Shown here in pieces: positions 6,355-35,359 of a stretch of DNA of 47,757 nucleotides. The notes under the pieces were generated by a model. That model was not told the origin of the DNA, ran no database searches, and saw only the letters and a list, made by a program, of their open reading frames with translations. A program made the position numbers and the translations under genes. Numbering within the stretch: position 1 is the first letter of the stretch; each line of letters opens with the position of its first letter. Origin of the DNA: a virus (lineage: Duplodnaviria; Heunggongvirae; Uroviricota; Caudoviricetes); IMG/VR virus record IMGVR_UViG_2529292906_000010; one strand, 5' to 3'.

Positions 6355-7086
6355 GTCTGAAATTTAAATCTTGCTTGGTAGGCTGGATTTAAAAAGACAC
6401 CTCTTGATTGGGGCGGCTTTCTTGCGTCTAAAGATAATCAAATCTTTTTGCGCCTGCAACCCCTTTTTTACTGGTGCCTGTTTCAGACTCACGCTCGCGT
6501 CGTTGTCTTTGCCACTTCGTTGGGTTCGGTGTTTTTGGACGGAGTGGCGCGCGGGTATGCGTACAAGGGGAAAGTGTGCTGACGCAAGCCAGGAACAGCG
6601 ATCTAAACTAAGTCGAGTCTGAGAAAGGCAGGAGTGCGACAACTCGCCTGTGCTCAATGAGCAGAAGAAGGTATATCAGACGACCAATGGCATGATTGTG
6701 GGCCACAGGGCGCACACGGCGGCGAAGCATTGGAAACGATGTGGAGCTATCTGGTGGCATGAGTTCCGGTACTCGATCTCGAGCTTTTTTGATGCTTTTG
6801 AGAAGGGGCCGGAACTCCGGTAAAGGGCACCCTGTATGGGGGGAGGGGGGTTGTGTCTGAAGGGTGGCTATCGGTTATGGTGGAATTATGATGCGTAGAA
6901 AAGCAAGTTTGCTGCAAGCTATTGGGTCCATTATTTCTTTGTTTCCGGCAGTTGATCATTTTCGTCATATGGCGACACGTTCGAGTATGGGCTTGGTGCG
7001 TGACGCTGACGCTATTCGAAAGGATTTTCAGAAAGTCTCTGGTGTTGATAAGAGAGAAAAGAGTAAGGGGCCGTAGCCCCTTGTAG

Positions 7087-8229
7087 TTATGGTCTGCTTT
7101 TCTGTGCCAGCTTATCAGCACATGTTTTTATCAGATCCTGTAGTGTCCTGGCTGGCAGGTTTGCATCCAGTACGCTGAGTATGCTGTTGTGATCTGCTTG
7201 GTCGACTACTTTGCCTGTCGGTGGTAGTAGCTTGAGCTGAGGATTCAGGTTTTCGTCAAAACTGATAAGTGCTCTGGCGTTTCTGAGCAGATCAAGAAGT
7301 AAGGCTGATATCACATCATCTTTAGTCATTGTTGGTAGATTTAGTGCCGCTTTAGTTTTCTCCGTCGCCTTGTCAAACTCTTTGATTAGTGTCTTGCGGT
7401 AGTTTGGTTCCGTTAATAGCCGATGATGTTCTGTTGCCGTTCGGATAATCTTTGTTTCCTGATACAGTCGGTTGTATAGCATTCGCTCGTATTCTGCCTT
7501 TAACACGCTGCTGATAGCGTTAAAGGCTTCAATGTAGGCCAGCTTGATATCCTTCACGCCTGGACCGTCGATACTTTCCATGAGCAAGGTAAATCCGTCT
7601 TTTGTCATGCGATAGATTGTTATTTCGCGGTCGCTTCCTTCCAGCGGTCGTTGTTCTTTAAAGAAGTGACGCGCCGCAGCCGTGCGAGGAATGCGTAACG
7701 CATCGATGGCCATAACGATGGAATTGTTTGTGGTGCTGAATGCTTGGGCAACATCGGCTGAGGTTGTGAGTGGCTCGTTGTTGCACACCTTAACGTAATA
7801 CATTGGTTTAGCGTTGAGCGTATCGACAACCTCACGAGCATTGTTTGGTGAGACGGTTACGGTCGCGGCCGTTTGCGCGTTCTGGTTGAAGTAGCAGTCT
7901 TCCAGCCGTTCGAATACATCCCATGCCTGATCGGTTTCGAGCATTTTAGCGTGACGTGCAGCCCCGCGTTCGGTCCAGAGGATGAGCTTTCTAACGTTAT
8001 TCGCGATGGTTTGAAAATCTCTTAAAGAGATTTTCAAACTTTGGAGATCTGTACCTTTTACAACTATGAAATGTTTTCCTTCTGTAAACCGGGACTTATT
8101 ACGGTGGTGATTTCTGTGAAGACATTCGACGCTACAGCCATATAGTTTGGCAAGCAGCTCCGTGGTGATAACGGGGAGCTGCTTATGCAGGATAGGCTGT
8201 AGGGTGTTAACGGTCGGAAGCGTTTTCAT
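7087..8229 (-). CDS. phage antirepressor (ORF6N/Rha-like N-terminus)
   Basis: 380 aa; N-terminal region resembles ORF6N/Rha antirepressor domains as recalled. Confidence 0.65.
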   Translation of the reverse strand: MKTLPTVNTLQPILHKQLPVITTELLAKLYGCSVECLHRNHHRNKSRFTEGKHFIVVKGTDLQSLKISLRDFQTIANNVRKLILWTERGAARHAKMLETDQAWDVFERLEDCYFNQNAQTAATVTVSPNNAREVVDTLNAKPMYYVKVCNNEPLTTSADVAQAFSTTNNSIVMAIDALRIPRTAAARHFFKEQRPLEGSDREITIYRMTKDGFTLLMESIDGPGVKDIKLAYIEAFNAISSVLKAEYERMLYNRLYQETKIIRTATEHHRLLTEPNYRKTLIKEFDKATEKTKAALNLPTMTKDDVISALLLDLLRNARALISFDENLNPQLKLLPPTGKVVDQADHNSILSVLDANLPARTLQDLIKTCADKLAQKSRP

Positions 8230-8417
8230 TTTGCACCTCCCATAACTACTTTGGTTACGAGGGAGATTTTTGCGACAGAAACAGCGTTATCGTTGCTGGC
8301 GATGCGCATAGCTTCGCGCTCGATGATTTCAGCCAGGCGGAATTTATCGGCGTATGAGGCTTTCTTGAGAAGGATCTTTACGAGGTTGACGTAATAGTCA
8401 TGGGGTAGGTTTGTCAT
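8226..8417 (-). CDS. small protein overlapping antirepressor start (Icd-like position)
   Basis: 63-aa ORF whose stop overlaps the antirepressor start; AAGGGA RBS. Confidence 0.4.
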   Translation of the reverse strand: MTNLPHDYYVNLVKILLKKASYADKFRLAEIIEREAMRIASNDNAVSVAKISLVTKVVMGGAK

Positions 8418-8582
8418 TGTGATGATTCCCTTAAAGGTTAAGGATACTCACCACCGTCAGGTTCCAATCATTGGGTGGTGAGACGTGCAGGGTTGGAACT
8501 ACCGGACACAATGACGAACCGGCGAGTCTTACGACTCCCCCGCACGCCCCACCATAATTTGGGTGTAGCAGTGCTTTACGCA

Positions 8583-8690
8583 TAAAAAAACCGCTAACGC
8601 GGTATGCGCCATTGTGTCTACGGGGTTCCAATCCCGACCGTAGATTTTGCTACGGCTCGGAAAGTGTCCACCAATGGCGCATTCATGTCA
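8583..8690 (-). ncRNA. candidate structured small RNA upstream of antirepressor operon
   Basis: Minus-strand hairpins (GCGCCATTG/CAATGGCGC; TCTACGG/CCGTAGA) ending in CCGCGTTAGCGG + T7 terminator at 8583-8605; no ORF. Confidence 0.25.
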
Positions 8691-9173
8691 ATACGGCGGG
8701 ATTTTAACAGAGACAACCACATAGCGTGGGTTTATTGGTAGGCAGAAACAAAAAAACCGCCCTATTGAGGACGGTTCTTTCGTGCTGATCGGATTCGCGG
8801 TCCTTTCAGCATTACGTTGTTGTATAAACAACCACGCAAGCACAAGCAGCAAGTTAATTTTACCCAAAAGGTAATAATAGTCCACTATTATGCTTCAAAA
8901 AATTGTGGTTCTTGTTGTGCCTGCAAACTCACAGATTGTGGGTAGGTTACTGATTTTGTGAAAATAAACGAGTTTTTTCGTTTAATTTCTTTCCTATTAC
9001 TAATCTTAAAATAATCGTAAAATACCTGTGGACCTTCCCGCCGATTCGCACCCGGGCACCGACTTTAGGGGAGGATTCTCCGTTGCCGTACATGCAAGCA
9101 CAAGCAGCCGTGCTTGCTCTCGCGTTGTTTTCGTCGGTGGGGATGCCGTGAAACGGCCTGTAAGGGCCATACA

Positions 9174-9296
9174 ATGAAAAAATACTGTATGTGTATTTTT
9201 ATCGTTGTTACTGGAGCTTTGTTTACGCCACATGGGGAGGGTTGGAAGATTACTGATAACGCTCTGAATGTGACGATAAACATTAGCAGCAAGTAG
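9174..9296 (+). CDS. small hydrophobic protein (40 aa)
   Basis: MKKYCMCIFIVVTGALFT... with AAGGG RBS; followed by terminator at 9302-9325. Confidence 0.3.
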   Translation: MKKYCMCIFIVVTGALFTPHGEGWKITDNALNVTINISSK

Positions 9297-9301
9297 CGAT
9301 T

Positions 9302-9325
9302 AGGCCCCTTCGGGGGCCTTTTTTA
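9302..9325. terminator. hairpin terminator
   Basis: AGGCCCC-TTCG-GGGGCCT followed by TTTTTT. Confidence 0.6.
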
Positions 9326-11109: not shown

Positions 11110-11772
11110 TCATAACCAGTTGACAACACTAACTACGCGGCCAAGAACTTTATAACGCTTAAATTCCTCGTTATTCAGATGCTTAGTGTTCATTTCAGCA
11201 TCCCTTTCGGTTGACAGCATAACAGCATTGTCACCCGGTATGACTCTACAGTGCCTCAAAACAACCAGGCCATTTCTGTCTTCAAGGGCATAGATCCCCT
11301 CATGAACCTCTGTATCGTCTGTATTAATCAGGACTTGGGAGCCAGGGGATATTGTTGGTGACATTAGCTTTAGCTCATCGTTGCTCTGGAGAACAGACAG
11401 AGACGATGGGTTGATGTTCTTGCTTCGTAGAATCTCCTGTTCTATCGCCAGCACTGGCTTTTCTCCGGCGTGCGATGCTATGTCATTTTTTATAGCTACA
11501 AGCCCAGGAATAACAGGTGCGTTAGTATTCTGGGGTGGGAACGGGTTATCTGTTAAGCACGCGATATAAGGCGCTGATGCTTTCAGGGCGTGCGCGATTT
11601 TCTTGATGGCAGGTATAGATGGTTGTCTTAATCCGGCCTCATAGTTCTGCAAGGTGCTTAAGCCTATTCCAGTGACTTGCTGGAGATCTCCGGCAGTCAT
11701 GCCGGATTGTTTCCGTAGAGTCTGAATGCGCAGACCTATTTCTTTCTTGATGTTCTCGTCGTTGCTTTTCAT
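11110..11772 (-). CDS. CI-type repressor (N-terminal HTH, C-terminal S24/LexA-like domain)
   Basis: 220 aa; XRE HTH (LQQVTGIGLSTLQNYEAG); C-terminus has MSP and KVLGRVV motifs at the positions of the LexA-type Ser/Lys dyad; divergent from Cro-like gene. Confidence 0.75.
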   Translation of the reverse strand: MKSNDENIKKEIGLRIQTLRKQSGMTAGDLQQVTGIGLSTLQNYEAGLRQPSIPAIKKIAHALKASAPYIACLTDNPFPPQNTNAPVIPGLVAIKNDIASHAGEKPVLAIEQEILRSKNINPSSLSVLQSNDELKLMSPTISPGSQVLINTDDTEVHEGIYALEDRNGLVVLRHCRVIPGDNAVMLSTERDAEMNTKHLNNEEFKRYKVLGRVVSVVNWL

Positions 11773-21039: not shown

Positions 21040-21115
21040 GGCCCCTTAGCTTAGTGGTTAGAGCAGGCGACTCATAATCGCACGGTCATCGGTTCAAATC
21101 CGGTAGGGGCCACCA
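21040..21115 (+). tRNA. tRNA with CAU anticodon (Met or Ile2/lysidine type)
   Basis: 76-nt cloverleaf: acceptor GGCCCCT/AGGGGCC, anticodon loop CTCATAA, T-loop GGTTCAAATCC, 3' CCA; recalled as close to E. coli tRNA-Ile2. Confidence 0.8.
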
Positions 21116-35015: not shown

Positions 35016-35359
35016 TGAACTCATTCAAAGAGGTTATAGCGCAAGATATTTCTGCAATATTCCTCAATGAAAAAGAGTTTGCCGATACATATAACATAGA
35101 CGGCAAGGATATCCTTGCCGTTATTGATACAGACCTTATTCATGAGCGGAATAAACGCTCATATGCTGAGTTTGCAGAGGGAATAAATCAGGGGCAAATA
35201 ATATTATTTGTTTCAAGAAAAGATTTTCCTGTTCTCCCTGTCAAAGACCAGTCAATGAAAATCAACGGTAAAAATTATATTGTTGATGAAGTATCAGATA
35301 ATGTTGGTGTATTGGAAATAACTCTCACTGTTAATACTAACAGAGGAATGCCGATTTGA
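35015..35359 (+). CDS. putative head-tail connector/completion protein
   Basis: 114 aa; assigned by position. Confidence 0.4.
   Translation: MNSFKEVIAQDISAIFLNEKEFADTYNIDGKDILAVIDTDLIHERNKRSYAEFAEGINQGQIILFVSRKDFPVLPVKDQSMKINGKNYIVDEVSDNVGVLEITLTVNTNRGMPI

Follow-up and report, generated by a model that had tools for sequence, protein, structure and literature searches.

The question raised by this locus is how the antirepressor gene of a temperate phage can be kept silent, and released from silence, by the RNA encoded in front of it. The locus lies in IMG/VR record IMGVR_UViG_2529292906_000010, a 47,757-nucleotide (nt) stretch of DNA from a virus of the Caudoviricetes (the whole stretch is called the window here), in which a small open reading frame (ORF) of 63 amino acids (aa) overlaps the start of a 380-aa antirepressor gene. 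From the annotation of a related plasmid, which shares 96.8% identity with it over the 2-kb query 7000-9000, the window is read as a phage-plasmid of ~48 kb that has genes for RepA, ParA and myovirus-type structural proteins. The region is very probably a secondary-immunity (ImmI-type) module of a temperate phage-plasmid, in the style of P1 and Gifsy-1, in which the antisense RNA C4 silences a two-gene antirepressor operon. This mechanism is already known and would not surprise a specialist; the locus is a further example of it, one in which a separate 63-aa gene lies between leader and antirepressor.

The RNA upstream of the two genes belongs to recognized families. The operon is encoded on the minus strand, to which the coordinates of its parts refer, and the whole window was scanned against Rfam with the curated gathering (GA) scores as threshold. 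C4 (RF01695) matched 8559-8471 over its full-length model (1-87) at 77.8 bits (GA of 45), and isrK (RF01394) matched 8656-8584, terminator included, at 67.7 bits (GA of 50). A search for these two families had been proposed in the original prediction, an earlier reading of the locus made without database searches, and both score above GA. In a permissive scan, c4-a1b1 (RF03163, described as 'a1, b1 targets of C4 antisense RNA') covers the 5' part of the isrK match. The IsrK-like leader RNA is made up of two hairpins and an intrinsic terminator at 8603-8584 (ACCGC-GUUA-GCGGU with its stem at 8603-8590, followed by a U7 run that reaches 8584), where the earlier reading had placed one at 8583-8605. 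Transcription of the operon is expected to start near 8657-8655, as judged from the position of a putative sigma-70 promoter at 8691-8663 (-35 TTGACA at 8691-8686, a 17-nt spacer, and -10 GACACT at 8668-8663). Divergent relatives and Gifsy-1 likewise have a promoter-like TTGAC(A/G/T)-17-hexamer at this distance from their IsrK-like RNA.

The ~260-nt leader is highly structured. When folded (261 nt) it reaches -101.1 kcal/mol (z-score of -5.06), and none of 200 shuffled sequences was as stable. C4 alone gives -46.6 kcal/mol (z-score of -5.69) and takes the shape of its family, a 17-bp basal stem around two hairpins. When C4 is aligned with P1 c4, whose ends are annotated, the mature RNA is predicted to comprise the 80 nt from 8553 to 8474. 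Typical C4 RNAs are processed from a longer transcript, RNase P making the 5' end, to a product of about 77 nt that represses in trans. The ~250 bp upstream of the small ORF had been described as free of ORFs and rich in stable hairpins; the second half of this description stands, since the region folds far beyond its shuffles, but a 66-aa ORF with a TTG start (8631-8431) and a 34-aa ORF are listed there, both over the RNAs. The 66-aa ORF has no Pfam match.

The model leaves two parts of C4 unpaired, a' and b', each of which has a complement on both sides of the RNA. The a' sequence (GUUCCAA, 8499-8493) is located at the 3' junction after C4 hairpin 2, while b' (GUCAUUGUG) has its core, GUCAUUGUGU (8515-8506), in the 13-nt loop of that hairpin. 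On the upstream side, a1 (UUGGAAC, 8631-8625) is in the loop of hairpin 2 of the IsrK-like RNA, and b1 (ACACAAUG, 8617-8610) is in the same RNA, 5' of its terminator. On the downstream side, a2 (UUGGAAC, 8467-8461) is directly 3' of C4, and b2 (CACAAUGAC, 8421-8413) lies over the AUG (8417-8415) of the 63-aa ORF, whose initiation region spans 8432-8413 and includes a Shine-Dalgarno (SD)-like AAGGGA at 8432-8427. Complementarity was scored as Watson-Crick runs and duplex energies in restricted windows. The Watson-Crick matches are 7 + 9 nt downstream (a2 and b2) and 7 + 8 nt upstream (a1 and b1); each is reached in 0.16-0.84% of shuffles (0.16% for the 9-nt match at b2), and all four jointly in none of 200,000 shuffles of the two target segments. 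Complementarity between the RNA region and the leader of the small ORF had been set beforehand as the refutation test of the original prediction; with the two downstream matches found there, the test did not refute it. A G-U-rich 'b2' at -40..-30 in the window was discarded as spurious, having come from scoring that allowed contiguous G-U pairs.

The a2 site is presented in the 18-nt loop of a hairpin at 8482-8447, which has a 9-bp stem (CTCACCACC at 8482-8474 and GGTGGTGAG at 8455-8447). The 5' arm of this hairpin (CUCACCACC, 8482-8474) is also the 3' strand of the C4 stem; the other arm is GGUGGUGAG (8455-8447). A 9-bp stem just before the small ORF had been noticed earlier, and it proved to be both present and conserved: the stem enclosing a2 is kept in C4-type relatives, and its counterpart in P1 (CCUGCCACC/GGUAGCAGG) differs from that of the window by three compensatory changes.

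The pairing sites covary among relatives. A total of 35 loci encoding a homologue of the 63-aa protein were collected, of which two came from the genome collection and most from viral and metagenome scans. In all 17 loci from the genome and viral scans, the ORF homologue is immediately preceded by C4 or by its look-alike, sRNA-Xcc1 (RF02221), and isrK is also present in 12 of these 17 Rfam-scanned loci, one of which has c4-a1b1 too. The 27 complete leaders hold seven a' sequences and 13 b' loops in 15 a'/b' combinations, with target sites that match in each. In these leaders a1 is fully complementary to a' except in the TTTCGAA types (6/7 positions there), a2 is complementary to a' in all combinations (with one G-U pair), and b1 and b2 pair with b' in every case, so that three sets of sites change together. 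Reassortment of the a and b modules is seen, for example, in GUUCC, which is accompanied by either CAUUGUG or CAUGGUG, and in CAUUGUG, whose partner is GUUCC, ACGCC or AGGCU. The b2 site is always between -24 and +9 of the start codon, within the ribosome-binding region: window-like types have it over the AUG (-6 to +9), Xcc1-like types have it at the SD (-16 to -5), and in two others it spans -24 to -15. The summed duplex energy of C4 with its cognate target averages -20.8 kcal/mol, versus -12.4 kcal/mol when both modules differ, and the cognate target ranked first or second in 22 of 23 rows.

A formal pair count on an 18-sequence alignment took in the hairpins of isrK, the helices of C4 and both upstream pairings (a1:a' and b1:b'). 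Of the cells counted, 98.8% are paired, and both sides are changed in 17 pairs, whereas controls in which the pairing was slid have 35-43% of cells paired. None of 500 shuffles reaches the observed percentage paired, the counts of both-side changes or the covariation score, and three of 500 reach the count of further pair types. Four of the seven pairs of the a1:a' helix are compensatory. Within C4 itself, three pairs of the basal stem and three of hairpin 1 are changed on both sides, with 99.6-100% of cells paired. The a':a2 and b':b2 pairings were counted by anchored extraction, as the MAFFT alignment shifts a2 by one column in some rows.

The arrangement had been likened to the ImmI locus of P1/P7 (c4 antisense RNA, icd and ant), and this comparison survives for the RNA leader and the operon order, but the window has no Icd and no P1-type Ant. 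The P1 record (NC_005856, 48140-49731) gives the order Oc4, two promoters, a1, b1, c4, a2, b2, icd and ant1; in it c4 is 77 nt long, a2 is three nt past c4, b2 is at the icd ribosome-binding site (RBS), and ant1 and icd overlap by four nt. The P1 leader scores 68.8 bits for C4, 51.0 bits for c4-a1b1 and 35.1 bits (below threshold) for isrK. Because it matches the same RNA families in the same annotated order, the RNA leader and operon layout are the same in P1 and the window: the succession of promoter, a1, b1, C4, a2, b2, small ORF, ATGA overlap and antirepressor is identical, the C4 and a1/b1 RNAs are homologous, the hairpin enclosing a2 is kept, and both hosts are plasmid prophages. The resemblance is limited to these features, as the 63-aa protein and the antirepressor are unrelated to Icd and Ant1. 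BLASTP of the 63-aa protein against P1 Icd gave no alignment at E <= 100, the antirepressor has no significant alignment with P1 Ant1, and homology to the P1 proteins was therefore rejected. Ant1 is a KilAC/ANT protein (PF03374) whereas the antirepressor of the window is a PF10543 + PF09669 protein; b2 lies over the AUG in the window and at the SD in P1; and the candidate primary repressor of the window is a CI-like helix-turn-helix (HTH) protein, that of P1 being C1. The heteroimmunity of P1 and P7 is set by differences in their a/b sequences. Such differences plausibly set heteroimmunity among window-type elements as well.

The 63-aa ORF (8417-8226) occupies the place that icd has in P1 and encodes a member of phrog_7886, a PHROG family of unknown function. 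The ORF is protein-coding and under strong purifying selection, with a pairwise ratio of nonsynonymous to synonymous substitution rates (dN/dS) that has a median of 0.09 and a maximum of 0.19, at dS up to 1.6. Homologues form only 39 clusters, all from the Enterobacterales, and their length is fixed at 63 aa in nearly all cases and across several genera of that order. The protein has no match in Pfam and only a far sub-threshold chance match in NCBIfam. Its AlphaFold2 (AF2) model consists of three helices (predicted local distance difference test score, pLDDT, of 79) and has no fold match in the PDB.

The second gene of the operon, at 8229-7087, encodes the antirepressor, a 380-aa protein with an ORF6N domain (PF10543; residues 12-96, E of 2.7e-17, 63.3 bits with a GA of 27.8) followed by a Phage_pRha domain (PF09669; residues 155-239, E of 3.9e-12, 47.0 bits with a GA of 29.9). 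It matches many anti-repressor PHROGs, its C-terminal third is without a domain match, and no relative of solved structure was found by sequence. Residues 1-150 are 48% identical to Gifsy-1 AnrP over 153 aligned columns (E of 1e-44), and both have ORF6N. The predicted overlap of the small ORF with the start of a Rha/ORF6N-type antirepressor is real: both domains are found, and the TGA of the 63-aa ORF overlaps the ATG of the 380-aa ORF as ATGA at 8229-8226. The last codons of the 63-aa ORF also hold the SD of the antirepressor gene (GGGAGGUG, 8241-8234). A terminator-like hairpin (AAGGGGCUACGGCCCCUU) with a U-rich tail, detected by terminator scan and folding at 7082-7065, ends the operon.

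The junction between the two genes, ATGGGAGGTGC(A/C/T)AAATGA, hardly varies: of 15 divergent loci, only three have a substitution in it, and a single one each. The gene that follows varies by locus and encodes an ORF6N, ORF6N+Rha, Rha-only or P22_AR_N antirepressor, with the SD and ATGA kept. Loci in which the antirepressor family has switched are L003, L013, L014, L015, L017, L018, L034 and L037, representing three unrelated families. Since the junction is kept while the downstream antirepressor switches, the leader and the 63-aa gene together act like a cassette that can be followed by one or another of several interchangeable antirepressors. A tentative extension, which we regard as possible and do not favor, is that the 63-aa gene is an unrecognized small effector or adaptor (a positional analogue of Icd, such as a host-directed inhibitor, or a partner of the antirepressor) that is fixed in a C4-leader cassette before at least three antirepressor families, with a two-site a/b code that reassorts into many specificities.

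Two further observations concern the small ORF. In L018 (2501-2690), where C4, isrK and the ORF6N gene downstream are all intact, the 63-aa homologue is frameshifted after codon 22, which points to a pseudogene or to a sequencing error. In relatives with the b' loop UCAUGAUGA, gene callers start the small ORF inside C4 (window 8471-8520), which produces 95-aa proteins labeled 'ash family protein' (P0001, P0003, P0004, P0006 and P0008). The Pfam family Phage_ASH (PF10554) matches residues 2-39 of the 95-aa product, a stretch translated from the 3' half of C4 and from the leader. It is possible that this family represents, at least in part, an RNA gene read as protein.

By analogy with P1/P7 and Gifsy-1, these parts most probably work together as follows. 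A single promoter would give a transcript that carries the IsrK-like leader, C4, the 63-aa ORF and the antirepressor gene. Most transcripts would end at the IsrK terminator, and those that read through would carry C4, which would be cut out as an RNA of ~80 nt. The a' sequence of C4 would contact a2 in its hairpin loop while b' would pair over the AUG of the 63-aa ORF, and ribosome binding would be blocked. Because the SD and start of the antirepressor gene are inside the end of the 63-aa ORF, little or no antirepressor would be made if that ORF were not translated, which would leave active the primary CI-like repressor, the putative object of its attack. C4 would also silence an incoming phage of the same a/b type; since only phages of the matching type would be silenced, the a/b sequences would define the specificity of immunity. 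The a1/b1 sites of the IsrK-like RNA would act as decoys that turn the operon on, either by holding C4 in cis in an inactive long-range helix or by titrating it in trans.

Several points weigh against this account. The c4-a1b1 match in the window scores 38.8 bits, below its GA of 46.7, although the family is above GA in L018, P1 and Gifsy-1. The mRNA leader without C4 is predicted to fold on itself in a hairpin that buries the SD, and part of the silencing might not need C4. The operon promoter was missed by a consensus promoter scan because its -10 (GACACT) is weak. Coupling and polarity are suggested by the layout alone because the proteins of the window are not homologous to Icd or Ant1. 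The candidate target of the antirepressor is a 220-aa CI-like protein in which Pfam recognizes only the HTH. There is no LexA box near the operon, the sole CTGT-N8-ACAG of the window being at 35328 and at chance level, and LexA control of the operon was rejected as no SOS box was found nearby.

The closest characterized relative of the locus is the isrK-orf45-anrP locus of Gifsy-1, not P1, and the control described there offers the strongest alternative. The Rfam scan of Gifsy-1 finds isrK (79.3 bits), then C4 (69.0 bits), with anrP directly afterward. The two loci share a homologous isrK-C4 leader, a promoter in the same position, the a'/a1/a2 and b'/b1/b2 logic, and an ORF6N domain that in AnrP is homologous to the N-terminus of the window antirepressor; the a' sequence of Gifsy-1, ACGCCAA, is also found in L001, L009 and L018. 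The two loci also differ. In Gifsy-1, anrP directly follows the leader, orf45 is within the C4 region and there is no separate 63-aa gene, whereas the window has a conserved 63-aa gene between leader and antirepressor in an ATGA-coupled layout. The window antirepressor is twice as long, with a Rha domain and a C-terminal region added; its host is a plasmid-borne myovirus-type phage while Gifsy-1 is an integrated lambdoid prophage; and neither antQ nor isrJ is near the window operon. Outside Gifsy-1, the leader is 74-79% identical in 257 phage records of Stx-converting lambdoid phages such as vB_EcoP_24B. In that phage the isrK-C4 leader is followed directly by an annotated Ant antirepressor, with no 63-aa ORF.

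In Gifsy-1, not all isrK transcripts end at the terminator; some continue past it (Hershko-Shalev et al. 2016, PMC4825925). The resulting long RNA is translationally silent since the middle of IsrK pairs with a downstream segment in 'structure A', the short IsrK activates translation of orf45 in trans and, by coupling, that of anrP, and AnrP induces the prophage (PMC4825925). If such positive control dominated in the window, the read-through RNA would be untranslatable in cis, the short IsrK would be the trans activator and the C4 segment would act as a cis inhibitor. We consider this rather unlikely as the dominant mode. Several findings favor it: in the MFE (minimum free energy) structure of the 261-nt leader the a1-b1 segment is paired with the b'-a' segment in a long helix, which resembles 'structure A' (PMC4825925) and is supported by the a1:a' and b1:b' covariation; the isrK model matches with its terminator at 67.7 bits, a1/b1 covary with C4 nearly as strictly as a2/b2 do, and the antirepressor is homologous to AnrP. 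What positive control leaves unexplained is the covariation of a2/b2, at the RBS and AUG, with the C4 loops across 15 types. The P1 record moreover annotates a2 and b2 as the sites at which C4 represses translation of icd-ant. A stable processed RNA, STnc1160, was detected downstream of IsrK in Gifsy-1 (PMC4825925); the Rfam C4 match falls in the STnc1160 region, and a stable RNA from there fits a diffusible C4. Positive control is also compatible with silencing by C4, which already includes the decoy role of IsrK.

The phage-plasmid N15 has a CA RNA system that acts by premature transcription termination. The CI RNA of P4 (seqA/seqC) and the CA RNA of N15 resemble C4 in being antisense RNAs encoded between two copies of their target on a single transcript, from which they are processed, as is predicted for C4. 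These systems differ in being described as premature transcription termination, and P4 controls replication genes, not an antirepressor, in this way; the comparison is one of described mechanisms. Pairing of C4 with its upstream and downstream sites might accordingly cause early termination of transcription instead of a ribosome block, an explanation that we consider improbable. IsrK has been called a structural homologue of P4 seqA, and STnc1160 has been compared with P4 CI RNA, which pairs with both sides of itself (PMC4825925), and an intrinsic terminator does lie between a1/b1 and C4. However, b2 is on the start codon or SD in every type (-24 to +9), a position that is expected for a translational block and needless for termination, and the terminator scan found no such hairpin between C4 and the small ORF. 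Rho-dependent polarity after a block, as in P1, would lower transcription anyway, which makes the two explanations hard to separate by sequence. Finally, the chance that the hairpins and complementarities are incidental to an ordinary 5' untranslated region and the 63-aa ORF spurious is negligible: the ORF does lack a Pfam family, but two Rfam families above GA, the 0/200,000 shuffles, the compensatory covariation, and a dN/dS of 0.09 with a 63-aa length conserved in several Enterobacterales genera refute this reading.

Silencing of the operon by C4 would leave the primary repressor in control of lysogeny, and the window offers a candidate for that repressor and for its operators. The gene for the 220-aa CI-like HTH protein (minus strand, 11110-11772) is separated from a divergent operon by an intergenic region with CCAC-N5-GTGG palindromes. 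A LexA-like cleavage domain was looked for in this protein, in which Pfam sees the HTH only. CCAC-N5-GTGG occurs at six sites in the window (2263, 8717, 11054, 11811, 11912 and 45868), versus 0.39 expected, a number reached in none of 100 shuffles, and two of the copies (11811 and 11912) are in the cI/cro-like intergenic region. These palindromes are a candidate dispersed operator set of the CI-like repressor, recalling the scattered C1 operators of P1. The operator-like copy at 8717-8729 (CCACATAGCGTGG) precedes the -35 of the antirepressor operon by 26 nt. It is kept in position in E. coli relatives that share the operon promoter, and we infer that it may be bound by the CI-like repressor.

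Relatives of the element include the 48.5-kb plasmid of E. coli ATCC 25922 (98.8% identical here) and the Yersinia phages vB_YpM_39/41/44. Of 5,426 complete E. coli genomes, 84 (~1.5%) carry a 475-bp segment made up of the leader and the small ORF, mostly on plasmids of 47-50 kb. A pSLy3-type label for the element was rejected, since pSLy3 is a 114-kb SSU5-like plasmid. Yersinia phage vB_YpM_41 (L001 4150-4830) has an insertion of ~680 bp between 8744 and 8733, and split matches of vB_YpM_44 and several E. coli plasmids, that of ATCC 25922 included, point to the same insertion. The insertion in L001 holds a gene for a 190-aa HTH protein that is transcribed away from the antirepressor operon, and it is possible that this gene is a dedicated regulator of the operon that the window lacks.

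Other features of the window were noted in passing. The ryfA RNA (RF00126) has a full-length match at 9028-9324 on the plus strand (142.3 bits with a GA of 80) and is present in eight related loci. The ryfA region contains a 40-aa hydrophobic ORF (MKKYCMCIFIVVTGALF..., about 9174-9296) and adjoins the ParA partition gene. In Salmonella, ryfA encodes a small toxin, and the ORF in the window may be a type I toxin for plasmid maintenance. Between ryfA and the antirepressor operon, a structured segment of ~100 nt (8749-8844, minus strand) has three hairpins and a perfect terminator (-43.5 kcal/mol, z-score of -5.4), is preceded by a promoter-like site at 8884-8857, and resembles RNAI below threshold (26.7 bits against 47); it is possibly a small RNA that has escaped annotation. 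A gene for a tRNA of the Met or Ile2 type (anticodon CAU, 65.8 bits) is located at 21040-21112 on the plus strand.

The proposed operon control offers a concrete, testable mechanism for the control of lysogeny and for superinfection immunity in a ~48-kb phage-plasmid. The RNAs on which it would depend are unannotated in the genome records examined, some of which translate the C4 RNA as an 'ash family protein'. The comparison also indicates that the literatures on Gifsy-1 IsrK and on P1 c4 describe one RNA module, in which IsrK is the a1/b1 leader and STnc1160/orf45 is the C4 region. The 15 natural a'/b' specificity types, each with matching targets, are ready compensatory variants for the study of RNA-based immunity.

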